Shown here: positions 7,695 to 59,761 of the stretch, piece after piece
Position numbering within the stretch: position 1 is the first letter of the stretch
Layout: each line of letters starts with the position of its first letter
From: Macrostomum lignano
Taxonomy: Eukaryota
Assembly: GCA_002269645.1 (NCBI GenBank)
Contig: NIVC01003789.1
Span: 1-64,000, forward strand
Length of the DNA stretch: 64,000 nucleotides
Direction: 5' to 3'
The notes under the pieces: generated by a model
Told to the model about the DNA's origin: nothing
Databases searched by the model: none
What the model saw: only the letters and a program-made list of their open reading frames with translations
Made by a program: the position numbers and the translations under genes

Positions 7695-10600
7695 CTAGCA
7701 GGGCGGCGCATCCTTAAGCACGCCGAACACCACGCTGAGCAGGAAGCCAACCACCGCGCCGACTGCCGCGCCAGCCTGCGTGGCGACGCCAGTCAGACGC
7801 AGCCAGCGTCGGCCCTCGCCGCTGCTACCGCCCTCGCTGACGCTGGCAGCGATGCAGGCCTTGGCGAAGCTGAACAGCCCCGACGCGGCTGTCCAGCCGA
7901 TGATCATGAGGGCGGCGCCAAGGCCGCCGTGCAGCAGAGGCGGCGTCGGTGACATGGCGGCCAGCGTGGTGACGTAGCCGCTGGCCAGACAGCCGGCGGC
8001 CACCAGAGCCAGCAGGCTGCGGGCAGTCCGGGCCCGCCAGGCAAAGGTGGCAAAGCAGGCCAGGGGGTTGGCCAGGTTGGCCAGGGTCACGGCCAGGTGG
8101 TAGGCGCTGTAGCCGTATGGCAGGGCAGAGTAGGACTGCAACGAGGGCAGCAGGCCGGTGCCCCAGGCGTTCAGCAGGGCCACCAGGCAGAGCAGGAAGG
8201 CGCGATTGGGTGCGCTGCCGCTTCGGCGAGGCTGCCGAAGGCTGGTGGTCTCGTCCGGGGTGTTGCGATGGCTGGCATCGGGCTGAGGGGATACCTGAAT
8301 GGGGGGGGGGTTGAATCGCTGCAAGCACAGTCTTGGAGTCAAATTACCGCAGGGTCAACTACATCCGGTAGCTCAACCGGAAATTACTTCGGTTCGTGAT
8401 GTACCCGGATAAAGCTCGGGAAAATGTTTCTGATATTATAAAGTTCTTCTCAGTAGTTTCTCATCCTCCTACTTTTCATTGTCTAAACGCCGATTAAACC
8501 TGAGATAAGCCACCCACCTGGGCTCCGGAGGCGGCCAGCTGCTGCTCAGTCTTCAATGGCGGCCTATTAGCCAGCTTAAACGGCCAGGCGGTGAGCAGCC
8601 AGAAGGCCAGCAGGCTGTAGCAGAGCATGCCGCACAGCAGGCCGTAGAATGCGCCCACAGAGTAGCGGGGCGGCGCGTACTCCGGATGCGTGCCGTTGAT
8701 GCACTCTGGGGCGCCGCCCGAGCCCTGGGAATGATAAATAGGTCGGCTTTCTAAGAAAATATCGGCGTTCTAATGCTTCAACATTGAAGCAGTTTATCGC
8801 CCAGTCGGTTCTGGACTATTTATGGTAACTTTGTAAAGGCCTTTTTAATATGCAAGTATCAAAAAACTGTTTTTTCGATACATATCGGCAGAAAAGTTTC
8901 CTGAGCAATACAAGCTTAAGACAAGCTTATCTTTTAAGCACCGATATGCATAGAAATTAGAAACCTAGGTATAAGAGTAGGTAGGATGAGAAGTAGAGTG
9001 CAAAGTAGCCTACTATAAGTAGCAATATTGAGCAGTGTGAGAAGGAGTTGATTTGGTAAAGTAGACCCACCAACCAAAAAGCGAGCGAAGGTGCCCACCC
9101 TCAGTTTCTGCTTTCATCGAAAATATAATTGCAATTTCGTGTGTTCATTGTGTTGAAATTTTTTGTAGTAATTACTGTTCGATAACGATAAGGCGGCACT
9201 TATACGCTGCTGCACCTGTGCGCCATGGCTTATGCCGATGGGGCCTTGGTTCTTAGCCGTTGAACTGCGCACTTTCGCCAACATATTTATGGCCTACAAG
9301 AAAAAGCTTGACTAAATACAATGACCAAATGACTTTTCATTGTACAGCAAGGCCAGACTGTAGCGATTCTTATCTTTAACCGCTGAGTGCTGCATAATAG
9401 CAGTGCCGATTGACCTGCAGTCCGCTTTCTATAAGCTGCGAAGTGCGAAGCATTAGAATACAGTAATTTTTCTTAGCATCAAGCACACCAAATACTTCAC
9501 GTGAAATGCTTTTTTGGATACATAAACTTATGAGGCTCATACTGACGCACTTGAATCTGCAGATAGTATGAGATTTGCTAGCCTAAGTTTATTAGCGAGA
9601 AATTTGCCTGCCGAAATCTGCTAGCCGAATTTGCTGCCTTGTTCTCTTATTTGCTGTTTGTTTTCATATCGACAAGTTAATCAGCCGCTTTGATTCGTAC
9701 GAGTATAAATATATGGCTCGTACTGCCACTGACAGCTACTAGCAAGCTTCGGCTAGCAAATTTCCTGTTAGCAAACTTGATACTGCCTCTCCGCTCTCCC
9801 TCAGCGCTTGAATCTGCATCTCCGCTCTGCCTCAGCGCTTGAATCTGCCTCTCCGCTCTGCCTCAGCGCTTGAATCTGCCTCTCCGCTCTGCCTCAGCGC
9901 TTGAATCTGCATCTCCGCTCTCCCTCAGCGCTTGAATCTGCCTCTCCGCTCTCCCTCAGCGCTTGAATCTGCCTCTCCGCTCTGCCTCAGCGCTTGAATC
10001 TGCCTCTCCGCTCTGCCTCAGCGCTTGAATCTGCATCTCCGCTCTCCCTCAGCGCTTGAATCTGCATCTCCGCTCTGCCTCAGCGCTTGAATCTGCCTCT
10101 CCGCTCTCCCTCAGCGCTTGAATCTGCCTCTCCGCTCTCCCTCAGCGCTTGAATCTGCCTCTCCGCTCTCCCTCAGCGCTTGAATCTGCCTCTCCGCTCT
10201 GCCTCAGCGCTTGAATCTGCCTCTCCGCTCTGCCTCAGCGCTTGAATCTGCATCTCCGCTCTCCCTCAGCGCTTGAATCTGCCTCTCCGCTCTCCCTCAG
10301 CGCTTGAATCTGCCTCTCCGCTCTGCCTCAGCGCTTGAATCTGCCTCTCCGCTCTGCCTCAGCGCTTGAATCTGCATCTCCGCTCTCCCTCAGCGCTTGA
10401 ATCTGCATCTCCGCTCTCCCTCAGCGCTTGAATCTGCCTCTCCGCTCTCCCTCAGCGCTTGAATCTGCCTCTCCGCTCTGCCTCAGCGCTTGAATCTGCC
10501 TCTCCGCTCTGCCTCAGCGCTTGAATCTGCCTCTCCGCTCTGCCTCAGCGCTTGAATCTGCCTCTCCGCTCTCCCTCAGCGCTTGAATCTGCCTCTCCGC

Positions 10601-11578
10601 TCTGCCTCAGCGCTTGAATCTGCCTCTCCGCTCTCTCCCCAGTGCTTGAATCTGCCTCTCCGCTCTCCCCAATCCCTTAATCTGCCTCTCCACTCTCCCC
10701 AGTTCTTGAATCTGCCTCTCCGCTCTCCCCAATCCCCGAATCTACCTCTCCGCTCCCCCCCCCCAGTGCTTGAATCTGCCTCTCCGCTTTCCCCAGTTCT
10801 TGAATCTGCCTCTCCGCTCTCCCCAATCCCCGAATCTACCTCTCCGCTCCCCCCCCCCCAGTGCTTGAATCTGCCTCTCCGCTTTCCCCAGTTCTTGAAT
10901 CTGCCTCTCCGCTCTCCCCAATCCCCGAATCTACCTCTCCGCTCTCTCCCAGTGCTTGAATCTGCCTCTCCGCTCTTTCCCAGTGCTTGAATCTGCCTCT
11001 CCGCTCTCACTCAGACCATCACGGCAAGACCCAGTCAATGGACTCACCTGTATCAATGCCAGCAGCCCTGGGATCAGTCCGCCAACTCCTTCGCCAACGT
11101 ACAGGGCGCTCAGATACGCGGTGGGATAGGCGGACATGTAGCTGAGATAGACAACAGAGGAGGAGCAGTCTACCAGGGACAGGGTCAGCACTACCAGCAT
11201 GAGTGGAAGGCTGCGACCGTCGATGGTGATTGGCCAGACGAAGGCGAGCACAAGCAAAGCCACGGCGCCAGTCGCATTGATGACGAACACGCCTGCCCGG
11301 TCAGTGAATTTGCCGCGGCTAAGCCGGCTGGCCAACAGGAAGGCGGCCGGGCCGATGTTGCCCAGCTGCACAATCACGGCCAGGTAGGACGGCAGCGACC
11401 AGCCCTCCGGCAGGCTCTTCACCATCAGCGGCAGCTGGTTGAACACGCCATTGATGTCGATCCAGGAGCCCAGGGCGAAGCTGCCAATTAGAAAGCAGGC
11501 CAGCATTGACAGACGCGGCGGAGCTGGGCGCGGTGAAGGAGGCGCCTCAGGCCGCTCAGACATGGACGGCAGCGACAT
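7695..11578 (-). CDS. SLC52A: SLC52-family riboflavin transporter; exons 11578-11048, 8724-8518, 8294-7695 (~445 aa)
   Basis: GSWIDINGVFNQLPLMVKSLPEGWSLPSYL, YVGEGVGGLIPGLLALIQ|GSGG..C.N..P.YSVGAF, GLLPSLQSYSALPYGYSAYHLAVTLANLANPLAC. GT-AG introns in phase 0 restore one ORF. Confidence 0.92.
9784..11010. repeat. 31-bp minisatellite in SLC52 intron 1 (cttgaatctgcctctccgctctccctcagcg)
   Basis: Period of 31 bp (tcagcg at 9801 and 9832); diverging variants near 10620-11010. Confidence 0.95.
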
Positions 11579-12950
11579 GGACTGTCTGCTGGCTGGCGCT
11601 TTTGGCTCCTGTCAGTCCGAGTCGAATTTGGGGAATTGAGCAGCCGCATGCCAAAATCATCTCTGATTACTAACGAAAATTGAATTCATCAGGTGGCTCA
11701 ACCTGAGGATCTGGGAGGGTGACAATGGCCTGGTCTGAGGATCTGAGAGGGTGACAATGGCCTGGTCTGAGGATCTAGGAGGGTGACAATGGCCTAGTCT
11801 AAAGGGTCTGTGGGGATGACAATGGCCTAGTCTAAGGGTCTAGGAGAATGGCAATGGCCTAAGGGTCTAGAAGTATAGTGACCTAGCCTAATGGCTTTGG
11901 AAGTCATAATCTAGCCTAAAGACTAGGCTTTATGCAAAGTGATTCCATTGACATTAGAATTGTCCAAATAATGCCTTGAACTTTTAGACAAACATTTAAC
12001 ATTATAGCTTTAAAATCAAATCCTAGGTAAAAAGTTTAATTCTTTTTATGTAATATTATCCAAATTAAAAAAATGACACCTCAAAATTTGACTTTAAGTG
12101 CAATATAATACCTAATATCTAGATAAAAGCTTTCAAAAGTGTGGCTTAACCTTAGACTACATTGTTCTAAGAGGATAATAGCCTAGTCTAAAAAAATAGC
12201 ATACTAGCTTAAGAACCTTAGAGATTAAGAAATCTAAAAGTAAAAGATAAGAGATACTATACTTAAAAAAATAAAATATATAAAACTGGCTAATTCTAGA
12301 CTAATGTCATTTTTTCCTATACTTAGATTAGAAGAAAATAGGCCTAGGCTTAATGTTCATCAAACCACATTAACTTTTTATCAAATCCTTTCATACTACC
12401 ATTTGACTTAAATATAGTTGATATTTAAATATAGCTATAAAAAGTTAAATTAAACTTTTGATTGGAATGCAATATGCTTAAATAGTAAACTTTAATATAA
12501 AATGAGATATAATAATCATGCATGAAAGTTATGGTTTAGACTAGGCCTATAGAGATATACAAGTAATAGCAAGTAGTTTTCAACTAGGCCTATTCCTAGA
12601 ACTCTTACTTCTTTTGCAGTGGTACAACCATGGGGATAGAATGTAAATAGTTACCCCTATAGCCTTATAGGCAAAGACCTGAAAAAATCAAAGGGGAGAC
12701 CAAGCAAACTTTTACCAAAATATAGAGCCACTCTTTTTCTACCCCTTTTTTGGTCTTTACCTTCCAGAATCTACCCACCCTCAACAAATTTCTGGTTGCC
12801 CTACCATTCTTTTGATACCAAAGTAATAAAAAGTATAAACCTAGCTAGCTGAGCTATAAGTTTTAGGCTTTAGCTATACTCTATAGATAGGCACCTACTA
12901 GTTTATGAAAATTGATATAAATCCTATATACTAAAAATGGTCTGTCTGTG

Positions 12951-15460: not shown

Positions 15461-16167
15461 AATAAAAGTGTCATTTAAAAAATTAAGAAGCATCATGGTA
15501 GAATAAAAGAAGCGTCATGTCAGACATGAAGGGTGTCATGTAAAAATAAATGCAGCTATAATGCTGTGCTGGGGAGAAAAACTGAGACGTAAAGGCTCAC
15601 GGAGAATAACTGAGATTACGGGGGGTGGGGTTCTGAGATGTCAAAGCAAAAGTCAGAAGCTAATTCAAAGTTAATGTTTAGTGACCAGCCCGACACAAAG
15701 AGACACAGAGACAATTGGCGAGCAAGGCGAGCAACGCGCGGGAGGCGCACAGCGAAAAAGCGACCTCCAAGCTATGTATTTTACGAGTATAACGAGTTAC
15801 AAGCAAAAAAATTGAGATAAAAGCAGAAATTGAATTAAAAAAAAAACTCAAGCGGAGAGCTGCGCGCAAATTGAGTCAGAAAACGCGGTGAGAGGCTCAC
15901 CTAAAAAGGCTAGCAGGCGGAGGGGGGGTGGGGGCCAGCCCCCACCCCACACAGATGCACAGAGACAGCAAAGGGGGCGGGCTGATCACTAAAGCCGGTT
16001 TGCACAGGCGCAAGCACCCATGCAAACCAAAGCATTAGTGACCAGCCCGACACAAAGAGACACAGAGACAATTGGCGAGCAAGGCGAGCAACGCGCGGGA
16101 GGCGCACAGCGAAAAAGCGACCTCCAAACCCAAAGCAAGCAAGCGAACAAAAGCAGAAGGCGAGGAG

Positions 16168-17217
16168 CTAAAACAAAGCAGAGACACCACCGGCAAAAGT
16201 CACAGCAGCCTCCGCTGCCTGGTGAAACTGGGGGAGATAACGCTGCACAGCCTCACTTCTCCAGTCACCAATGCGCATGATATCAGACACTGGGAGGCCT
16301 AGCACAGACGCCCAGGTAGCTCCTCCTCGTCGCAGACTGTGCGCGGAGTAAGATCCTGGTCGAACGCCGGCTGCGGCAAACTTGTCACGGAGGAAGCAGT
16401 CCAGGTGCCTCCCAGTCAGCAGGCGCAAGCCGCCACTTCCGTCGGCGTAGGACCAGAGCGGTGACTCTGCTGACTTCAACCCGTTGGCGCGGATGTGTCG
16501 CTCGACTGCGCTCACAGGGCACAGGGCTGGCTGCCGCGCCAATCTCGGCAGCAGTACCCGGTGACTGCGCTCCTTAAACTGGATGGTCTTGCCGAACTCG
16601 CAGCGCAACACCAAACCCTTCGGATGCTGAAGCAGGTCGGCGCGCCGAGAAAGGGCCGGGCCTTTGCCAGTTCGTGGCAGAAGGCTGGACTTTCGCAACA
16701 TTCCCCACCAGCAGCAGATGGTCGCAGCCCAGCAGGCCAGCTGCAGCCTGTCGGTCTCGTCAACTAGTCGTCGCATCTCCGTCAGCATTGTAGGTGACAC
16801 AGGCCGCTTTCGGTTCACGCGCAGTCCGAGGACCCGTTTAGCGCCGCGTAGGAGAAGAACCGCTGAAGCGTGCTTAGTCAGGTCCGGCGACGAGTTTATT
16901 CGAAACCAGAGCGACAGAGAGCTGCAGACTGCCGAGATGCTGCTGTAGGCATGTAGCCGTGTGCCGATCAGACTGGCCAAATAGTTCAGCAGGCTCGTGA
17001 CGTTGCAGGACACTGGATCGCAGCCGGTATGGCGGCAGAACTCCTGCCACTCACGGATGTGTCTGTTGACTGCCTGCGCCGACCTCGGTGCGTACGCAGC
17101 GCTCAGCAGCGATGTGGCGCGGCTGCTAAGAGAGTCTGACGCAGCTGGGCGGCCTGAAAATGAAGAAAGGAGGCGGTCGCCAAGCCAAAAGCATGCTGAT
17201 GCAGTGATTGTAGAATG
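16168..17217 (-). CDS. Tyrosine recombinase of the Ngaro element
   Basis: WWGMLRKSSLL (Arg), YSAHSLRRGGAT (HxxR), GDWRSEAVQRY (Trp, Tyr). Frame is open from 17217 (after TAG) and includes LLSAAYAPRS...WQEFCRH; true start unclear. Confidence 0.9.
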   Translation of the reverse strand, partial: HSTITASACFWLGDRLLSSFSGRPAASDSLSSRATSLLSAAYAPRSAQAVNRHIREWQEFCRHTGCDPVSCNVTSLLNYLASLIGTRLHAYSSISAVCSSLSLWFRINSSPDLTKHASAVLLLRGAKRVLGLRVNRKRPVSPTMLTEMRRLVDETDRLQLACWAATICCWWGMLRKSSLLPRTGKGPALSRRADLLQHPKGLVLRCEFGKTIQFKERSHRVLLPRLARQPALCPVSAVERHIRANGLKSAESPLWSYADGSGGLRLLTGRHLDCFLRDKFAAAGVRPGSYSAHSLRRGGATWASVLGLPVSDIMRIGDWRSEAVQRYLPQFHQAAEAAVTFAGGVSALF

Positions 17218-18806
17218 CTAGGACAAATAAAACCATAACAGCGGAGTAAAAAGTTTAACAGCTGGCCTCGCTCGTGCAACCGCGAGGCAGCGTCAGCAAA
17301 AATTTGAAAATCACCAGGCACATGAAACGCGCGAATGCTCATTCCAAAACGCAAACACATCAGAGCCACAGTCTGCAGCAGCCGCTGCAACGCAGGACAC
17401 TTTGAAACGCCTTTGTTGATGATGTGACAGGCCGTCTGGTTGTCGCAGTAGATGCTCACCTTGCAACCTTTGAGCACATCCCTCCACCTCATCACTGCCA
17501 GCAGAGGGGCCAACGCTTCCTTGTAGTTGATCGGCAGGTCAGCGAAGACAGATCCTGCATCCTTCTCCCAGTCCAGGTAGCACCAGTCAAACAGACCATC
17601 CTGGTCACGCAGCAGCGCCGCACCACCTCTGCCGCACGCATCGGATTCCATCGCCACAACTCGATCGTAGCTCGGCCACAGCTGCACCCATCGGCACGCC
17701 TGCAACGCCACCTTCCACCAGTTTAGCTGACTGCGTAACCCGGAGTCGACCAGCGTTCGCTGTCCACGCCGTAAGATGTTGCACCGCTCAATCAGCTCAC
17801 GCAAGAAGGTCCTTCCGCAACTGATGACCTGCGCTGCCCACCCCAACTTGCCAATGACCTGTTGGAGGGCCCGCTGACTAAGCCTCACCTTGGCTGACTC
17901 GACACCAAGCAGGTTGATCAACTTCCTTGCCTTCTCATCCGGCAGCTTCTTGATTCCTTCCACAGTGTCGAACTCAATTCCAAGGAATGACATCCGCTGC
18001 GCCGGCAGCTGGCACTTGGCCGGATTGACGGTGAAGCCCAGCCGAGTCAGCAAGTCAATCAGATCGACGTAGAAGCGCTGGCAGTTCTCCTGCGTCCCGC
18101 AGTAGGCAAAGTCGTCCAGGTAAGACTCGGTGTTGATGAAGCCTCTACGCACCATCATCAGATGAATCGCATTGCTCAGGCGTTGGAAGCACGTGACCGA
18201 GGCTGCCGCCCCGAACGGCAGTCGCGTATCAAACATGTAGGTGGGAGTGGCGCAGCCAGGAAATTTGAACTTGAGGCCGGTGTTGACGAAGTCTCCTGGG
18301 TGCACTCCACATGCGTGGTATGCTTCACTCAGGTCAACTTTAGTCATGTAGCAGCCTCTCGTTAACTTCCTTGCGAAGTTTTCAGCGCTTGAAAACCGCA
18401 ACTTCTCATTGCTCTCCCAGTGCGCGTTCACCGACAGATTGTCCGGCCGACTGCAATCGTGAATTAGGCGTACCCGACCGTCATCCTTCGGCAGGGCACC
18501 CAGCGCACTCACAATCCGAGGCCGCCACCCATCCGAGCACCGACGGTAGCGGTCAAGGCGAATTTCTCTCAGAATTTGCATTTGAACAGCTTCAGCGTAA
18601 ATATTCACAGACTCGTAGTTGCTGACCTCGACAGACTTCAGGTTTTCTCGCTGCACATTCGTAATCCGAAATCCCTCAGACACACCATCAAGAATAAACT
18701 GCTTTCTGTCCAGCGGCAGATCAATCGACTCCAACTCTTCCATCCATGCCTCCAGCTTTAGGTCAGTTGATAAAACAGAGGAAGTTAAAACAGGATCAAC
18801 GCGCAG
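17103..18806 (-). CDS. Reverse transcriptase / RNase H of the Ngaro element
   Basis: RLIHDCS, KVDLSEAYH, LPFGAAAS, YLDDF, FLGIEFDT; RNase H ESDAC..INYKEALA..YCDNQ..ADAASR. First ATG 18743, but the frame is open from 18806. Confidence 0.93.
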   Translation of the reverse strand: MRVDPVLTSSVLSTDLKLEAWMEELESIDLPLDRKQFILDGVSEGFRITNVQRENLKSVEVSNYESVNIYAEAVQMQILREIRLDRYRRCSDGWRPRIVSALGALPKDDGRVRLIHDCSRPDNLSVNAHWESNEKLRFSSAENFARKLTRGCYMTKVDLSEAYHACGVHPGDFVNTGLKFKFPGCATPTYMFDTRLPFGAAASVTCFQRLSNAIHLMMVRRGFINTESYLDDFAYCGTQENCQRFYVDLIDLLTRLGFTVNPAKCQLPAQRMSFLGIEFDTVEGIKKLPDEKARKLINLLGVESAKVRLSQRALQQVIGKLGWAAQVISCGRTFLRELIERCNILRRGQRTLVDSGLRSQLNWWKVALQACRWVQLWPSYDRVVAMESDACGRGGAALLRDQDGLFDWCYLDWEKDAGSVFADLPINYKEALAPLLAVMRWRDVLKGCKVSIYCDNQTACHIINKGVSKCPALQRLLQTVALMCLRFGMSIRAFHVPGDFQIFADAASRLHERGQLLNFLLRCYGFICPSILQSLHQHAFGLATASFLHFQAAQLRQTLLAAAPHRC

Positions 18807-19907
18807 TCAATGCAGAGGCCTGCTGACCTCAGCACCGTCATCCCTGTGCGCCATCGCTGCTGAGTGGCCAAGTCCACAACGCCGGCACCGATGAGCGAAA
18901 CGGCAGTTCCGCCTTGAGCATCCAGATTCCTTGTTGAAATCAAAGCAGGGTGGCTGCAGGCTTTGTCTTGGCCCCCGGTCAACTCTGGCAGTCGGTGCAC
19001 TCTGTGGGGCCATCAGATAGGTGGCAACTCGGCCAAGGTCAGATCCGCGCGACTCCCATGACGTCTCACCATCTTCACTCAGTCTGCACTCGTCATCAAA
19101 CCTCATGACTCGAGCCTTGTCGAACCCGAGGTCAAACAGCTCGCCAATGCGCGCAGTGTAGCGCAGGTAGTCTCGCAACTCTGACACATCAGGCTGGCCG
19201 CCCAGCCCGCTCTTCACCAACCTGCCATCATCCAGCAACTTCAGCATGATTCGAGCATTCGCCGAGATCCAGTCTCCAAACGTCAGCGAGTCAACAACAG
19301 CTTCCTTCACTCTGAAGGTGACTCTCCCTGATTTGTCAATGGACTGAGTCACTCCTGCCTCCTGCTGCTTTCGCTTGTTAATAAACTCAGGGATTCGGTA
19401 CACCTTGCCTACAGACCGACTGGGCTCTTGCTGGGCAGCATCTTCATCGTCAGACCACAGGTTAATGAGCAACTCACCGGGATTCTTTGACGTCGCAGGC
19501 CTTCGCTGAAGTTGGCTGACTTCCGCCTGAAGCAGAGCGGCCTCCTTGCGTAGCTTTAGCAGTCGGAGCTGCTTCTCAGCCTCCACCAGCTCGTCGTCCA
19601 GGCCGCCAGCCGCGTCAGACTCTTGACCATGTTGTACCGACTCGTTCGCGATAAAAGGCAGTTGCCTCTCCGCCGTAGCGCCGTTTCTTCTTTCACGCGT
19701 CGTCACTGTGGCAGCTTCATCTTGCTCCTCGTCCTCGTCGTCTGCATTCTCAAGATCGGAGGCGATGCCCTCGAGGTGCGCCCTCAGCCGCATTAAAAGT
19801 TCACATTTTCTGCCTTGTGTTGAAAGCCCTAGGCTCTGAAGCTTCTCACGTAGCGCCCTTACAGTGCTAGGCGCTTCGGATGCAACTGGCTCGTTAGGGT
19901 TTGGCAT
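18807..19907 (-). CDS. Gag-like protein with N-terminal SAP motif and C-terminal Cys/His finger
   Basis: MPNP start at 19907; TVRALREKLQSLGLSTQGRKCELLMRLRAHL (SAP-like); CFDFNKESGCSRRNCRFAHRCRRCGLGH. Confidence 0.85.
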   Translation of the reverse strand: MPNPNEPVASEAPSTVRALREKLQSLGLSTQGRKCELLMRLRAHLEGIASDLENADDEDEEQDEAATVTTRERRNGATAERQLPFIANESVQHGQESDAAGGLDDELVEAEKQLRLLKLRKEAALLQAEVSQLQRRPATSKNPGELLINLWSDDEDAAQQEPSRSVGKVYRIPEFINKRKQQEAGVTQSIDKSGRVTFRVKEAVVDSLTFGDWISANARIMLKLLDDGRLVKSGLGGQPDVSELRDYLRYTARIGELFDLGFDKARVMRFDDECRLSEDGETSWESRGSDLGRVATYLMAPQSAPTARVDRGPRQSLQPPCFDFNKESGCSRRNCRFAHRCRRCGLGHSAAMAHRDDGAEVSRPLH

Positions 19908-22615
19908 GATTGTGCAAAAAAAAAACTCAAGCGGAGAGCTGCGCGCAAATTGAGTCAGAAAACGCGGTGAGAGGCTCACCTAAAAAGGCTAGCAGGCGGA
20001 GGGGGGGTGGGGGCCAGCCCCCACCCCACACAGATGCACAGAGACAGCAAAGGGGGCGGGCTGATCACTAAAGCCGGTTTGCACAGGCGCAAGCACCCAT
20101 GCAAACCAAAGCAACTTTACTCAATTTTTTTATTGCATTCTTTGTTGGCTCGCCACGGGGGGGGCGCTGATAGAAGAAGAGTCATGTAAAAAATAAAAGT
20201 AGCACTATGTATACATAATAGAAAAGTCATGTCGAAGTTAAAAGATTCATTTGGGAATTGCTACGATGTCAAAGCTTGGTGGAAATCGTTATAGTGCTGT
20301 GATTCTTAAAGAAGGAATCACTAAAATGTCAAGGCTTAGGGGAGAAGAATTGCTGAGATTTCAAGGCTTTAGGTTGGGTTAAAGTTAGGTTTAGGTAAGG
20401 TGTGGGTTGAGGGTTATATTTTATCGGGTTTCAAGGTTAACGGGATTTTTTAGATTTCAAGGTTTATGGGGGGCCATCGCTGACATGTCAAGGCTTACGG
20501 GGGGAATAGCTGAGATGTCAAGGCTCACGAGGGTATAAATGAGATTTCAAGGCTAAAGTCAGAAGCTACATGTAGTTTATTGAAAACTTTTTATTACATT
20601 ATTTGATGCCTCCTCAGGGGAGGGATCGCTAATTAAAAAAGCGTAATGTAAAAAATAAAAGAAGCTTCATGTTGAAGTTAAGAGATTCATTTGGGAATCC
20701 CTACGATGTCGAGGCTTGCAGGGAATCGCTATAATGCTGTAGTAGTGCTATAATGACTCTTAGAGAGAATTACTGAAATTTCAATGCTTTAGGGTTAGGT
20801 TAGGGTTAGGGTTAGGCTAGGGTTAGGGTTAGAAGGTTGACAGATATTTTTAGATTTCCAAGGCTTATTGGAGGCATTGCTGAGATGTCAAGGGGGGAAG
20901 TTGATATGTTAAAGCTTGTGGGGGGAATTACTGACATGTCAAGGCTTACAAGGTTTGACAGGAGATTTTTTAAGATTTCAAGGATACATGTAGCTTATTA
21001 AAAAAACGTGTATTGCATTTCTCTGGCTCCCCAACGGGGGGCGTAGATTGCTAGTAGAAAGCTCTATTACCTAAAAATTGATATCATAGCAATAATTTTT
21101 TATGATGTCTATGTTGATATCTAGATTTTGTATTGCCATTGGCATTATAAATGTCAATACTACAATAGGCCTAGATATTTATATTTGAATTGGTGCCACA
21201 ATATATAGTGCCATGGTAGAAAATGATATCTGTGGCGAAAATGGATGGGAAATGGTATTAGAAAATGCTCTAGTTCTATCTACTACTCTATCTACTGCTC
21301 TATCTACTGCTCCATCTATCGCTACTTTTACTGCCCTATCGCTCTATCTACCGCTCTAGTTACTGCTCCATTTATACTTCTCTATCAACTGCTCTATCTA
21401 GTGTTTAGAGGCACTATGTTGTGGTAACGATTCAAACTTGAAAAAATATCGAATATCGAATATCGAAACTTGAAAATAATATCGAAACAAACTGGAAGAT
21501 CGCCTATTGAGGTTCTTAATGAACTGATACCTAGTAAGTCTTTGCGTTCCCTTGCTTCGACATTAACACACTGACAGAAATGAAAATTGCATCAAAATTG
21601 AATTCATTTACCTTTCCTTTCATTTAGCTTATGTAAATTATTTCAGATTTTTAGCTAAGCCGAGCCGAGCCGCGTATACAGCCTCGGTAATGTAGAAATA
21701 AATCTAAAATTGCTGCACGTGGCTTCGTGAGACGGAAATAACAAATGTTAGACCTACTACTGCAAGATAAATGCTTAGTTGTTTCAGATAAAACAGATCA
21801 TTTAACTATTGTTTTTGACAAAGCCTTTATTGACTAATTTGATAGAATAGTCTGAGTCTGAGTAATGATAGTTCTCGATCACTCCGCCGCCGCAATCACC
21901 CCGCAATTGGTCTCTCCCATAAAACGATAAGTTAAGACCGCCGCAATCACCCCGCAATTGGTCTCTCCCATCAACTAAATTTTTATTATTTGATGATATC
22001 TGATCCTGATTTTTGTAGCTCTTGGAGAGTGTTTCGAAGTACCCAATCAGTAATCACTTAGAATTTTCAAATATTTAAAGTAATGTTAATGTCACTAGGC
22101 CTAGGCCTAGTTTGTGTTTTACTTTCCAGTTTCATTCATTGGACATTGAGTCGATGTCGATTGGCATCTTGACTTGACTTAAAGTTAAACTAAGTAGCCT
22201 ATAGGCTATTGAAAATATTTATAATGACAGTGACTGAGTGAGTGAATATAACTATGACTAGTATGACTATGACTTTAAACTTATTTTTATGCACCAACAT
22301 TTAAAACAAGCTAAAGGGCCTGTGTCTACAATTCTATGAAGTTGGTTTCCTTGATAAATATTCTATATGGCAGGTATGCCATGATTATAGGCATAGTTAG
22401 TATAGAATTTCAAAAAATTAGGCAATTATAGATATTCTGGCAGAACAACATGCTTTGCTTGATAAGGATTAATAGAAAGAAAGCAATCCGGAGCATTTTT
22501 TTCTTATTCAAATGACATGTTTTGCCTAACATTAGGCTATACACTATTACAATTTTGATAAATGCTAAGTAAAATTTTCAACAACTTAAAGATGCTTAAA
22601 CAAAATAGGCCTAGT

Positions 22616-40276: not shown

Positions 40277-44153
<3,877 letters not shown>

Positions 44154-53627: not shown

Positions 53628-56600
53628 CCATCTAATTTATTAGGTCCGGGTTGTTGGACATGACAACGTCCTGTGTTGAGCTGCGGAACACGTTTGGACC
53701 GACGCCGTGGCGACCCAACACTGCAACGGAACGACATTTTGGTTCCGTTTCGTGTGCAAAACACAAAAACGTCGCCGCCATCTGGGCTGGCGCCGAAGCC
53801 CGCGCTGTGTCGCCACTTGAGCAGCAGGTTAACAAAGGACGTCGGCAGGCAGAGGACGCTGCAGCTGCAGGGCTGTCCCGGAGGGGACACAGCGGGAAGG
53901 CGCGGGCGCCCATTCCGCTAGTCCCTGAACAGCCGACGCGTCGCTATGGACGGAGGGTTGGCGCCGCCCAGGGAGGTCCCCCAGTGTCGCCAGCAGCTAT
54001 AGTGCTCTCTGGAAAGGAGAGTTCAGCCCTGCGGGTGGCCCGAAGGTAGCGCATGAGCTGATTAAAGTTTTCGGGTTTGCACGCTTCAGTAATAGATGTG
54101 TGTGGCCCGAGGTAAGTGAGTCTGGCCCGCGTGAAGGCGGGACAGATGCTGACGAAATGCTCAGCGGTTTCGTCACCTGAGTTGCAGAAACTACAGGTGG
54201 CGTTGGTGGCGTTGCCCTGCAGGTGCTGGTGCCTGGAGAAGCAGCCGTGACCAGAGAGGTTCATGGTGGCAGCCCGGATGTCTCTGCGCGAGAGGCGCAA
54301 GAGGAGCTTCCGGAGCTGGTGAGAGGGCTGAGGGACAGCGCCTCTGGATTGCCTGCAGGTAGTGCAGTTCGCCCAAGTCGAGCGGTGCTGGGTCCTGATC
54401 CACGCTTTGATGCGCGAGTCGATGACACAGCCAGGAATCGGGACAAGGGGTTCGGGACCGAGAGAGGAGCCGGAGGCACCAACTTTTGCAAGGGTGTCAG
54501 CCAACTCATTTCCTCGGATCCCCACATGCCCCGGAACCCACTTAAGGGTAATTTTGTTGGTGGAACCCAACACGTTGAGGAGTTTGATACAGTCGAGGAC
54601 TGTTGCAGAGTTGGTACTGCAGCCACTGATGGCGTGCAAGGCGGCTTGGCTGTCCGAATGGAAAATGATGTTCTTACCAGTAACGCCAGTGGCGAGAAGC
54701 TCTGCAGTGCAGGAGCTGATGGCCAGAACTTCATTTTGAAAATCACTGGAGTTGACCCCAGTGTATTGAGCGTGGGTAGCGATGACCTTCCCGTTCAGAA
54801 AGATTCCAACACCAAAGCCGGTGTTGGCTGACTGCTTAGAACCGTCGGTGTAACAATGAAGCTCACCAAGGTTCCATTGGTCATTGATGTTATCGCGCGA
54901 GTCGATAGCTACGGAGTAGCGCTGTCTCAGGTTGAGCGTTGAGGCAATGCGATCGGTGAAGACGCGATTGGCCTGACACTCGTTGAGAAAGTTGAGGCTC
55001 AGGTCGCTATGCGGGACAAGGTTCCGCTTAGCAGGTGCTCTCATGTAAATGAATTTGACGCCGGCATCAATTAGACGCCGCGTCGTTCTAGCCGCCTCAC
55101 CCCTGACGAAGAGGTCAAGAGGCGGTAGATTAAGGAAGGCCCCCATGCCAGCAAAGGGCGTGGACCTGGTGGCGTTGCAGATGAGCCTACACGCTCTGCC
55201 TTGGATCGTGTTGAGCAGGTCTGCATGGCTTTTGACCTGGGTAGCGCTAACCCAGACAACCGAGGCGTACGTAATGGCAGGTCTAACTACGGAAGTATAG
55301 ATCCACCAAAGCCGCTTTGGGGATAGACCCCAAGAAGTGCCAAGTGCTCGTCGGAGCTGGGCCAGGATGGCTGAGGCACGCTTGGCTTTTGCTTTCACGT
55401 GGTAGGACCAGTTGAGCCGGTGGTCAAGTGTGACCCCGAGACATCTGGTCTGGTGCGCGAAGGCAATATCTCTGCCGTAGAGCTGCAGAGGACGTATGTT
55501 CCAGCGTAGTCTGCTGGTAAACATAATGGCAACGGTTTTGGGCTCAGAGAGTTCCAGACCATTGTCATTGGCCCAGGATTCTGCTTTGCGGATAAAGCTC
55601 TGCATCAGATCCCTGAGCGTGCTGGGAGACGGTCCTGCCACAATGGCCGTGACGTCATCAGCATACCCGACTTTGAAGACGGGGTCGGGTCGGGAGTCAC
55701 TCAGAAGAGCGTCCATGACCAGGTTCCAGAGCGTCGGGGTGAGGACTCCGCCTTGGGGTCCACCCTTACAGACTCTGGTGGAGGCAGTTTGCCCAAGAAG
55801 TTGGGCAGTGACCGTACGGTTGGAGATCATGTACATGATCCACCGTATGAGGGTAGCATGAGCTTTGCGATTTTGAAGGGCCCTCTGAAACGCTTCAAAG
55901 ATAACGTTGTCGAAGGCGCCAACAATGTCAAGAAAGAGAGCCAGGGCGTAACCGTCACCCAGTACCGCCCGTTCAATCTTCTCGACAATCGCATGCAGGG
56001 CGCTGTCAGTCGACCTCCCGGTACGGAAGGCGTGCTGATTATTGCTGAGGGGCATCGCTGTCAGCTCGCAGGAGAGCAGCCGCCAGAGAATAAGCCTCTC
56101 AGTGAGCTTAAGCATTGCTGACGTTAAGCTAATAGGCCGGAAGGCCTTGACGCTTTGGTAGTCACCCTTCCCAGGTTTGGGAATAAAGACTACCCGAGCT
56201 TCAGTCCAGCATTTGGGAACGTATCCCAGCTGGATAGAGGCCCGCATAAGATTGCGGGTGAGTCTCAGGAACGAGGGTATCTTGGCTGCTTCACGAAGGA
56301 GAACAGGGTAGATACCATCAGGTCCAGGAGATTTGAAGGGTTTGAAGGTTCTGACCGCACGAGCGATTAGGTCTTCAGTGACAATGCCCGCCGCTAGGGT
56401 GGCTCCATCCATCGAATGGTTGGACTCCGGTCTAGCAGTAGGTACCCTCGGGAAGAATGTGCTAAGCATATGCTGAAGCACTTCTTCAGGGTCTTTAGTA
56501 AGAGAGCCATCATCTTTTTTTATCATGGCTAATTTGGACATTTTGTCCATTGTAAGGGCCTTGACAAGCCTAGAAGTAGGTCTGTCTTGATCCAATTCAT

Positions 56601-57225
56601 TGCAGAATTGGCGCCACTTACATTCCTTGGCCTTGCGCACTTCAGATTTGAAATTGCGGGAGGCTTGCCGGAAAAGCTCCATGTCCTCCGGGTTTCCGGT
56701 CTTCATGACACGGCGATGAAGGCTTTTGGCCTTCCGCCTGAGTTTCCCCAGGTCCGGGTTCCACCACGGCGCCGAGGTCTTGCCTTTGTAGGCGCGAGCA
56801 GGACAAGCCGCTTCGTAGGCTGCAATAATGCAACCTGTCAGCGTCTCAGCCATATGATCCACATCCTCGCAGGTCTCAATCGGACGTAAGTCCGTGAGTT
56901 CCTGCAGGTGCAGATCAAGGGCAGCCTTGTAGGCCGCCCAATCAGTGTTGCGGATATTGCGTCTCCAAGTGATCGGAGACTGGGTTTTAGTATCCGCGAT
57001 GTTAAAGGCGATAAAGCAGTGGTCAGACAGGGAGGGCTCCTCAGACCAGACTCTCCACTCCTCAACTCTGTCAAAGAGTCTTGGGGTAACGAGTGTGGCG
57101 TCGAGGACCTCGGTCCATCTGCCATTATTAAAGGTAGGAGTGCTGCCGCGGTTGCAGAGCATGAGGTTTGTGTTAGAGATGAGGGCCAGAAGCTCCTCTC
57201 CTCTAGTGTTGGTATCGGATGATGC
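53628..57225 (-). mobile_element. 5'-truncated non-LTR retrotransposon with RNase H (I-group; Loa/Lian-like)
   Basis: 9-bp TSD ACAGTGACG at 53619-53627 and 57226-57234; starts in the APE C-terminus (SSDTNTRGEELL); ~316-bp 3' UTR ending AATAAATTAGATGG. Confidence 0.88.
53944..57222 (-). CDS. LINE ORF2: partial APE, RT, RNase H, CCHC finger
   Basis: KSPGPDGI, FRPISL, QHAFR, FLDIVGAFDNV, GGPQGGVLTPTLW, GYADD, CYTDGS..EVLAI..SDSQAAL..WVPGH..GNELADTLAK, CSFC..ETAEHF..C; >1070 aa uninterrupted. Confidence 0.93.
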   Translation of the reverse strand, partial: SSDTNTRGEELLALISNTNLMLCNRGSTPTFNNGRWTEVLDATLVTPRLFDRVEEWRVWSEEPSLSDHCFIAFNIADTKTQSPITWRRNIRNTDWAAYKAALDLHLQELTDLRPIETCEDVDHMAETLTGCIIAAYEAACPARAYKGKTSAPWWNPDLGKLRRKAKSLHRRVMKTGNPEDMELFRQASRNFKSEVRKAKECKWRQFCNELDQDRPTSRLVKALTMDKMSKLAMIKKDDGSLTKDPEEVLQHMLSTFFPRVPTARPESNHSMDGATLAAGIVTEDLIARAVRTFKPFKSPGPDGIYPVLLREAAKIPSFLRLTRNLMRASIQLGYVPKCWTEARVVFIPKPGKGDYQSVKAFRPISLTSAMLKLTERLILWRLLSCELTAMPLSNNQHAFRTGRSTDSALHAIVEKIERAVLGDGYALALFLDIVGAFDNVIFEAFQRALQNRKAHATLIRWIMYMISNRTVTAQLLGQTASTRVCKGGPQGGVLTPTLWNLVMDALLSDSRPDPVFKVGYADDVTAIVAGPSPSTLRDLMQSFIRKAESWANDNGLELSEPKTVAIMFTSRLRWNIRPLQLYGRDIAFAHQTRCLGVTLDHRLNWSYHVKAKAKRASAILAQLRRALGTSWGLSPKRLWWIYTSVVRPAITYASVVWVSATQVKSHADLLNTIQGRACRLICNATRSTPFAGMGAFLNLPPLDLFVRGEAARTTRRLIDAGVKFIYMRAPAKRNLVPHSDLSLNFLNECQANRVFTDRIASTLNLRQRYSVAIDSRDNINDQWNLGELHCYTDGSKQSANTGFGVGIFLNGKVIATHAQYTGVNSSDFQNEVLAISSCTAELLATGVTGKNIIFHSDSQAALHAISGCSTNSATVLDCIKLLNVLGSTNKITLKWVPGHVGIRGNELADTLAKVGASGSSLGPEPLVPIPGCVIDSRIKAWIRTQHRSTWANCTTCRQSRGAVPQPSHQLRKLLLRLSRRDIRAATMNLSGHGCFSRHQHLQGNATNATCSFCNSGDETAEHFVSICPAFTRARLTYLGPHTSITEACKPENFNQLMRYLRATRRAELSFPESTIAAGDTGGPPWAAPTLRP

Positions 57226-57833
57226 ACAGTGACGTGGAGAGCAAATCTATTGCGCAGCTGGATCATCGACTGCTGCGACGCGGACAAAGCATCGTCGTCG
57301 GTGTCCTCGCCGTCGTCTGCGCTGGTGTTACCGCTAATGCTGCTGCTGCTGCTGCTGCTGCTGTCTGAAGCATTTGCGTCATCGTCGGCTGCGGCGGCGG
57401 CGGCGGCGGCGGCGGCATCGCCAATTTCGTCTGCAGCAGCCCTAACGACTTGGTCTGCGGCGCTCCCCAGTAGTCGAGCACGAGAACTGCTACCGCCGTA
57501 ACCGAATTGCTCGACGAGCTTGCTGTAGTCGGCAAGCACGAGGCGCCATTCTTCGCTGGTCAGCAGCTTTTTCTGCTTTTTCGCGTGGTGTTCAGGGGCG
57601 TCAAGCTTACGATAAAAGTCGTGTTGCATCCGGAGCACTCGCAGGCGCTTTTTAAATAGCAAACAGCGCTCCTCCAGATTGTCGGCGATATCGGCTGGTA
57701 GGCGAAGACGCCGAATAACCAGCAGGCGATGCCCGGGATCGTCTTCGATGTAGAGAATAATAAAGCGCATACATTTAATCAGCGACCGTGCCGATGCTGC
57801 TACTAGTCTGGCGTAGAGCGTCTGCGGCGGCAT
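57226..57833 (-). CDS. Orphan ORF (MPPQTLYARL..., ~204 aa) whose last codons were separated by the LINE
   Basis: Helical/basic N-half and acidic Ala/Ser-rich C-half; rejoining at the TSD gives ..ALHVTV* (stop at 53617-53615). Confidence 0.55.
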
Positions 57834-58335
57834 TTGGGTCAGCCAGACAGAATAGAAAGTCTCTTGGAGGCTGCGGCTGAGTAGTCGGCGACTCCGAGCA
57901 TGCAGAAGCCTCAGCTATTGGCTGCGGCGGCGGCGGCGGCGGCGGCGGCGGAAGAGTCGCTGCGGCATCTTGGTCATCGCTGCAGTCGTAATTTTCACCG
58001 TCCACGGCTGTGGAGGCCGAATATGGTACTTTCGCCATCTTCTCAAAGCTTGATAGTACCAGGTCGGCGATTGCTTTCCACTTCTCCTCAAAGCCGTCGA
58101 TGTTTTGATCGTGAACACCTGTCGAAGGGTCGTAGTATAGCGATCTCAGCACTCTTAGCTGCAGCACGGCTGGCGAATCGGGTCTGAATGGCGCGGACAG
58201 GGAGCCGCGTTTCTTCTTTTCGGCAGCAGCGGTGGCAGCGTCGATGCCAGTGGCGGCGGAGATGGCGGACGCCTCGTTTGGCGGCGGGTCGGCAGACGCT
58301 GGTGTTGCTTTGGCTGCGGCGGCGGCGGATTCCAT
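57775..58335 (-). CDS. Orphan ORF (MESAAAAAKA..., 186 aa) overlapping the next ORF by 59 bp
   Basis: Open frame with a non-low-complexity core (LRVLRSLYYDPSTGVHDQNIDGFEEKWKAIADLVLSSF); acceptor-like cag 15 nt upstream of the ATG. Confidence 0.5.
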   Translation of the reverse strand: MESAAAAAKATPASADPPPNEASAISAATGIDAATAAAEKKKRGSLSAPFRPDSPAVLQLRVLRSLYYDPSTGVHDQNIDGFEEKWKAIADLVLSSFEKMAKVPYSASTAVDGENYDCSDDQDAAATLPPPPPPPPPQPIAEASACSESPTTQPQPPRDFLFCLADPNAAADALRQTSSSIGTVAD

Positions 58336-59761
58336 CTTTCGGTGCTTGGCCTGTCGAGTTATTAAAGGATAGAATGGCTATATGCTGAGTAGTATATGGC
58401 CCTAACACAGCTGCTCGCTAATACACAACTGCCCGCTAATACACGACTGCTCCTTATCCCGATTCCGAGTCAATATGCGTCTATGGCAGCCCGCAGGTAC
58501 ACAGTGTATGCCCGAATTTACACGTCGCAACTGCTCACCTGGTGCTTGTCGCTATCCCTAAACCAGCACGCTGTGATAAATAGGCAATTAGATAATAGCA
58601 TGCACGGTAAGCAATTATTTAGGCCCTAGACAAACCTACTTGGAGCGTTTGGAGATTTTAAAGCTATTAATCCTAATCGCCTATCGCCGGTCGGCGAGTC
58701 CTACCAGTCTTTCTCCAATAGCCGCAGGTACAGTACAAGAAAAGAAAGAACACGAGGGAACACAAACCAAAAGATTTAGAGAGTGATAATCCTATATGAT
58801 ACAACTGATAATTGGCTAGACGATTTAATTTGATTACTCAAGTTACAGGATTCAAGCAATTTCGCGGCGCAGATAATTAGACTGATGATAACGAATAGTA
58901 ACGATTAATAATAATGATTATATTACGCACTGACAAGCGGATCTCAGCTTGAAGAAGAAGAAGGAGGCACCGAACACGACCACGGAGAAGACTCCTAACC
59001 CCTGGCCTAAGCCAGAACCTACACTCAAACGAGAGCCCTGCCGAACCGACCGTTCAACGGAGTACCGACTAAATTCTATCGGCACTGCCCTTCAGTGTAA
59101 CACTGAGGCCCTCGGGGTCGAGGCCGCGTACTTGATCAGATCCGACAGTCTCTATCTAACCGCGCTTGATAGCGACGACTTCAGACAGAAATTTGCCGTA
59201 GACGTTACGCCACAAGACTACTGCGGTTGGGCGGGAACAAAAAAATATGGACCGGGGGTGATGAATTCAGGCGCCTCAAAGCGCGAACCAACAAGAGAGG
59301 AGAAATCGGGCCACCGGCCGGGAACTGGACAAGACAAAACCGGGGAAAGGGAGCGAGAAGAAGGCGAGATCCGATTGCCAAAACACACTTTCATATATAG
59401 TCAGAGTCGCAACCCCTCAAAACCCCCTCAAGCCGGGTGGTGGTCGTCTGGCCGGCCGCTTGCTTAAGCCGAATTGCACTGTGCCCGCGGCGCCGGGTAG
59501 AATTGAAACTTGCCGCGTGCCAGGGTCCAGGCCGGTTCTGATTGGCTGGCCGCACAAAGCTGGGGTTCGCAGACAAACTCAACCCTCCGCTGAGTCACAA
59601 ATGGCGTCTGACGTCTAGCCTGTTTACGCAAAATTGATTCTAACTAACAAGGAAAAAGTACACCAAAAACGTATGACTAAACTAAAGCAAAATAATAATT
59701 CAATAACAATAATGCAAAACCTAACTAATAGAATACAAGGCTATCGTAAAAGATGCTCACA

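Follow-up and report, generated by a model that had tools for sequence, protein, structure and literature searches.

The locus examined here raises the question of how a reverse transcriptase (RT) can be translated whose frame lacks an AUG at its start and is divided from a preceding gag-like frame only by an in-frame UGA. An earlier note on this DNA had proposed that a Gag-RT fusion is made by read-through of this stop codon. Comparative evidence from related copies supports that reading, and programmed read-through of the UGA is, at a probability of roughly 85%, the way in which the element would make Gag-RT. Positions refer to the window, i.e. the whole stretch of 64,000 nt that was analysed, and published papers are cited for those portions of their text that were covered.

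By its layout, the order of its ORFs and its domains, the element is an Ngaro-type tyrosine-recombinase retrotransposon, all features of which lie on the minus strand. A split direct repeat, A1 (19916..20113), forms the 5′ end and is 198 nt long, with 100% identity to repeat A2 (15837..16034), while repeat B1 (16020..16127) shares 94% identity with repeat B2 (15663..15770), which forms the 3′ end. The resulting order A1-[ORFs]-B1A2B2 is that described for Ngaro elements, e.g. those of Cafeteria burkhardae (PMC8547959). Gag-like ORF1, taken from the ORF list, encodes 366 aa (18807..19907, from the ATG at 19907 to the TGA) and contains a SAP domain at aa 15-46 (Pfam, E 1.3e-7); a Cys/His zinc-finger-like motif recognised in the sequence of the Gag C-terminus (18864..18947) served as an anchor in the surveys of junctions. 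The RT/RNase H frame of 567 codons (17103..18806) matched Pfam RVT_1 (E 5e-13) and RT_RNaseH (E 5e-4). Downstream of it, the recombinase frame is open from 17217 to 16168, with its first Met only at codon 144, and the tyrosine recombinase (YR) exon (16168..17153) carries HxxR and a C-terminal Tyr. This succession of gag-like, RT/RNase H and tyrosine recombinase ORFs is again that of Ngaro elements. No methyltransferase domain was matched in the element by Pfam at E<=1, as is expected for Ngaro elements, unlike the DIRS1-like elements, which carry one (PMC3266345). Alignment of the YR with that of a sister element (33% identity, E 4e-43) made HxxR and the Tyr visible; the sister YR matched Pfam Phage_integrase with E 4.8e-5, under the Pfam cut-off, and the window copy alone gave only Phage_int_SAM_4 (E 0.18). 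The search of the recombinase against solved structures yielded no real match.

Elsewhere in the window, a non-LTR retrotransposon was found at 53944-58377 (minus strand), with a frame of 1100 codons in which Pfam recognised endonuclease, RT and RNase H, and upstream of which lie two overlapping frames that gave no match in Pfam. Host exons (SLC52 riboflavin transporter, Forkhead domain) were located at 7695-8354 and 10931-11611 on the minus strand and at 43464-44153 on the plus strand, surrounded by many minisatellite arrays.

At the junction between gag and RT, the layout was exactly as had been described: on the minus strand, gag ends with ..PLH TGA (18809-18807) and the following CTG opens the RT in the same frame, so that the candidate read-through site reads CAT-TGA-CTG (18804..18812). 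The 21 sense codons said to precede the RT Met were also confirmed, the first Met being codon 22 (18743-18741), with the quoted peptide located there. This open stretch (18744..18806) comprises a linker and the RT N-terminus, with the pattern L...[VI]LS[TS]D[LM]....W; it is of equal length in four aligned families, with L1, L12, S13, D15 and W21 conserved. A U-rich motif, RTTTTATC (18769..18776, codons +11 to +13), is identical in the same four families. Together with a preceding TTTTAAY it occupies 18769-18790 (minus strand), where Leu is always encoded by TTA, though TTA makes up 5-11% of Leu codons; similar U-rich tracts follow the slip site in families with a -1 frameshift. Contigs from the sequencing runs X1, X2, X3, X4 and X7, like the other runs presumed to be RNA, span the stop codon unspliced, and no change is listed for them at 18807-18809.

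Searches of the genome to which the window belongs, which returned 26 places at the DNA level and 150 scored places at the protein level, led to 101 distinct loci that were examined. The RT N-terminal motif could be used as an anchor in 48 of these, to which all counts of the stop codon refer. The junction read TGA-CT(G/A/C), followed by an open linker of 20 codons, in 44 copies; it read AGA in three copies and was rearranged in one. Two further decayed copies showed TAA-CTG. The bases after TGA were CTG (22/48), CTC (16/48) or CTA (6/48), i.e. UGA-CU is kept while the third base varies. The 44 copies fall into five families, A (that of the window) to E, whose RTs outside family A are 57-74% identical to that of the window. 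Since the copies are not independent, they count as five lineages and not as 44 events. Several families keep a fully open RT frame of 567-606 codons, and the stop codon which ends that frame is TGA, TAG or TAA depending on the family. The earlier note had asked whether intact copies and relatives keep an in-frame TGA-C, and had regarded a sense codon in sister copies as evidence against its proposal. The former is the case in all five families, and AGA was confined to three decayed copies of one offshoot of family C.

These counts bear on the suggestion that the UGA is a nonsense mutation which has spread in a defective lineage borrowing RT from other elements. Many copies are indeed broken elsewhere, and three decayed ones read AGA; the AGA copies, however, carry other lesions besides, and the stop is common to five families in which RT has stayed open over 567-606 codons despite a divergence to 57-67% identity. 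This explanation is the remotest of those considered and is largely refuted.

A further possibility is that ribosomes terminate at the UGA and restart at the adjacent CUG or at an AUG downstream. It would suit the copies with CTG directly after the stop (22/48), and each family has some in-frame Met downstream, which in a further family, H (see below), stands just before the RT motif. Intact copies of family D have CTA at this place, however, and those of family E have CTC, neither of which is a start codon; since the codon after the stop may be CTG, CTA or CTC, restart at CUG fails. The first in-frame Met was found at codon 22, 154, 16, 32 and 35 in families A, B, C, D and E, respectively; in A, B, D and E it falls inside the conserved RT N-terminus or beyond it, and the conserved linker residues stand ahead of it in every family but one. 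Because the families share no AUG, homology of the RT starts before any Met, as had been claimed from the window copy. Restart would also leave the -1 and +1 slip sites and the TAG-G junctions of relatives unexplained, and is very improbable.

That the UGA is given a meaning in some other way, by RNA editing, by selenocysteine or by a host code that reads UGA as sense, has as its sole point in favour that the codon concerned is UGA. Against it, the RT frames contain 10-15 TGG codons and no internal TGA, and TGA terminates RT in three families. The four weak Rfam matches obtained at E<=5 between 15600 and 20200 included no SECIS element. The contigs crossing the UGA show it unchanged, although rare edits would be lost there. 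Recoding of this kind is extremely unlikely.

The remaining alternative to read-through is that RT is translated from a spliced or trans-spliced message of its own, for which the U-rich stretch would supply the pyrimidine tract and CAY-TGA-C the branch point. The element does splice, as shown by a contig of family C. In this contig, assembled from run X4, position 17154 of the window is joined to 19505 with 26 other letters in between, and these letters match the end of the family C exon 26/26 (locus L042; 17154/17153 and 19478/19477 in the window). The cut therefore falls exactly at the sites that had been predicted from the sequence before contigs were compared. The donor lies in gag (19472..19478), where the exon ends at 19478 and the intron starts with GTGAGT in phase 1; in 21 of 22 representatives from the same genome, gag carries such a phase-1 donor 337-454 nt from its start. 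The acceptor, a pyrimidine tract with CAG (17154..17170, phase 1), was alike in place and phase in 19 of the 22, and of 18 testable loci among metagenome relatives, 17 had their best acceptor in phase 1. The splice thus joins the N-terminal part of Gag, including the SAP domain, to the recombinase and removes RT, as observed in a single contig of a sister family from a run presumed to be RNA. A pre-spliced DNA copy was sought as the source of this contig, and no such family C copy was found in the genome; all six family C copies that reach the donor continue into the intron. The same junction is presumably used by the window copy itself. No Gag-YR joint of the window's own family appeared in the eight contig sets, which is no evidence either way. 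Other joints (e.g. 19193-19590), whose ends are non-canonical, were discounted as deriving from other families or variants. Contigs from runs X5 and X7 join 16467 to 20026/15947 and so link the recombinase region, through ten other letters, to repeat A; they may stem from a derivative with a deletion or from a circle-type junction.

With this splice the gag donor is accounted for, which shows that splicing serves the recombinase rather than RT. CACTGAC at the junction resembles the branch-point consensus, and U-rich tracts follow the stop in all five families as well as in several -1 families, as a spliced RT message would lead one to expect. The first AG after the stop, however, is found at +51, +69, +16, +5 and +11, in phases 0, 0, 1, 2 and 2, so that there is no common acceptor before the conserved Trp, and the donor in gag is in phase 1. 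An intron, moreover, needs no sequence that is in frame, free of stops and conserved as protein, yet the linker is all of these. Among the joints listed for the eight contig sets, from which rare splice forms are lost, none fell near the start of RT (18700-18810). A spliced or independently initiated RT message, which the earlier note had named as an outcome that would speak against read-through, was not found in these sets or in the arrangement of AUGs and acceptors, and a separate message for RT is improbable.

Signals 3′ of the stop that might stimulate read-through were less clear. The earlier suggestion to look for an RNA fold downstream was not borne out by local folding or by a scan of synonymous sites. 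No stable local fold was detected after the stop in nine folded copies (z -1.7 to +1.9), and synonymous conservation in four sequences showed no clear rise (0.52 and 0.65, the background being 0.44 and a higher value occurring elsewhere). When the same folding test was applied to nine -1 families, only one gave a clear positive result (L059, z -4.6) and two more came near -2, and the test is therefore weak. The bases at +4 to +6 in the window copy are CUG, rather than the textbook CUA or CGG, and were counted against read-through.

Outside families A to E, the same genome contains relatives that are joined differently. In 15 of 20 more distant loci, RT lies in the -1 frame and the heptamer A_AAA_AAC stands at the end of gag; this heptamer is ranked among the most shifty of the -1 type (PMC5009743). 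All 51 loci outside the A-E clade taken together, A_AAA_AAC was present no more than 10 nt from the gag stop in 31, no anchor could be found in 13, and seven were otherwise. In at least nine Ngaro families (L057-L073, L076) the gag stop is immediately preceded by A_AAA_AAC and RT lies in the -1 frame; in some a GC-rich hairpin follows the slip site, as in L059. In loci L068 and L112 the slip run is longer by a single A, which fuses gag to RT in one open frame and may be a homopolymer assembly error; in L072 and L073, which belong to a -1 family, 600-700 additional bases separate the slip site from the RT match, the RT frame still being open. Since a classical -1 slip site occupies this place in sister families, comparison lends stronger support than the earlier note could draw on. 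These relatives appear to be built for the same Gag-RT fusion by another route.

In RT trees, all of them quick IQ-TREE runs with SH-aLRT support and no bootstrap, families A to E come together in one clade (SH-aLRT 99), which lies among nine -1 families, and the RT proteins P0001 and P0002 fall inside this read-through clade. Most simply, a leaky in-frame stop would have taken the place of an older -1 frameshift. A sixth in-frame family from the same genome, H (L197-L203), has TGA-CTC in 7 of the 10 copies examined, all of which are broken; its linker of about 49 codons is longer than those of A to E, and a Met is found five codons before the RT motif. In the tree, family H is placed with weak support (83) beside the two nearest -1 families, so that either UGA-C was gained a second time or those two families reverted to -1. 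Given this weak placement, switches near the A-E clade may differ in number and direction from the simplest reading.

The diversity of junctions was greater still in related loci from metagenome contigs, where the type could be classified in 40 of 80 loci, the other 40 being left out. In-frame TGA-C was found in 11 (three of them assigned by hand rather than by script), TGA-A in one, TAG-G in eight, a -1 shift in 12 and a +1 shift in seven, and one locus was fused. The heptamer A_AAA_AA[C/T] was present in 10 of the 12 -1 rows and CGT_TTT_CGN (UUU_CGN) in six of the seven +1 rows. In a single clade (L125, L126, L141, L143, L150, L163), RT lies in the +1 frame and CGT_TTT_CGN stands close to the end of gag, resembling the +1 site of influenza PA-X; UCC_UUU_CGU is the +1 cassette of influenza A (PMC5009743). 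The in-frame TAG-G loci (L138, L149, L160, L161, L169, L173, L183, L195) resemble gammaretroviruses at the gag/RT junction and represent up to three lineages; six were folded and showed no local fold after TAG-G. By a hand tally, TGA-C or TAG-G was present at 19 of 20 in-frame stops and at 1 of 19 gag stops of frameshifted relatives (Fisher p=6e-9, a value inflated because the rows are related). UGA-C and UAG-G are leaky contexts, which correspond to type II and type III read-through, respectively (PMC3159437). Scans for relatives in viral contigs, and in the metagenome with a single RT protein as query, gave no match.

In a tree of 53 rows, from which L196 was left out as too short, the four junction types required 8 changes, against 26 with shuffled labels, and a single UGA-C clade was rejected in a subset of 25 rows (p-AU 1e-28). 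The types therefore pass down within clades and have changed over on several occasions; the count gives no direction. This suggests that the Ngaro group has repeatedly exchanged one decoding mode for another.

To judge from these comparisons, most ribosomes would stop at the UGA and release the 366-aa Gag, while a few would insert an amino acid there and continue at low frequency into a predicted Gag-RT-RNase H fusion of 934 aa. From a spliced message lacking the rest of gag and RT, a predicted fusion of 471 aa would be made from the Gag N-terminus and the recombinase. In retroviruses, gag-pol read-through sets the ratio of Gag to Gag-Pol, and by analogy the leak may set that of Gag to Gag-RT. 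More generally, it seems probable that Ngaro elements obtain three proteins from one promoter, i.e. Gag by termination, Gag-RT by recoding and Gag-YR by splicing out RT, and that recoding has switched repeatedly among -1 A_AAA_AAC, +1 UUU_CGN, UGA-C and UAG-G. The window element would then mark a switch from -1 to UGA that can be traced within one genome. Such elements, with a stop or frameshift after gag and no AUG behind it, would be scored as dead by annotators, and their RT is called from a wrong internal Met. As related elements solve one problem with four recoding signals, they offer a natural series in which the replacement of frameshifting and read-through during evolution can be followed.

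DIRS and Ngaro ORFs are described as separate or overlapping, with no mechanism given for expression of RT or YR, in the covered portions of PMC8547959, PMC3783388, PMC6681497, PMC3266345 and PMC7192593; the 300,000 of 449,034 characters covered of PMC5009743 mention neither DIRS nor Ngaro. Neither read-through nor programmed frameshifting nor Gag-YR splicing was reported for the order DIRS in the full-text literature searched; the original Ngaro description, subscription reviews and Repbase were outside this scope and may already note such junctions. The accounts covered thus leave the expression of RT and YR frames without a start codon unexplained, and the scheme proposed here is full and testable.

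Compared with known systems, the window element agrees with Ngaro elements of the order DIRS, such as those of Cafeteria burkhardae (PMC8547959), in its repeats, its ORF order, a YR with HxxR and Tyr, and the lack of a methyltransferase. With the gammaretrovirus MuLV, a type III system with UAG-G and a pseudoknot (PMC3159437), it shares a single in-frame stop between gag and RT. It differs in having UGA-C, in showing no compact 3′ fold on local folding, and in possessing neither a protease nor a DDE integrase, and is not a retrovirus; the UAG-G of type III is found instead in the eight metagenome relatives. Type II read-through, known from UGA-CUA and UGA-CGG in alphaviruses and tobraviruses (PMC3159437), is similar in having UGA-CU in the case of the former sequence and an RNA-templated polymerase behind the stop. 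In the read-through clade, however, the third base varies among G, A and C, and the extended 3′ stem-loop and synonymous conservation of type II were not seen by local folding and in the few sequences compared. LTR retrotransposons use -1 heptamers (PMC5009743), and gag-pol read-through has been proposed for gypsy-type elements of rice (PMC2754532); the same menu for joining gag to pol thus appears to be in use in a different order of retroelements.
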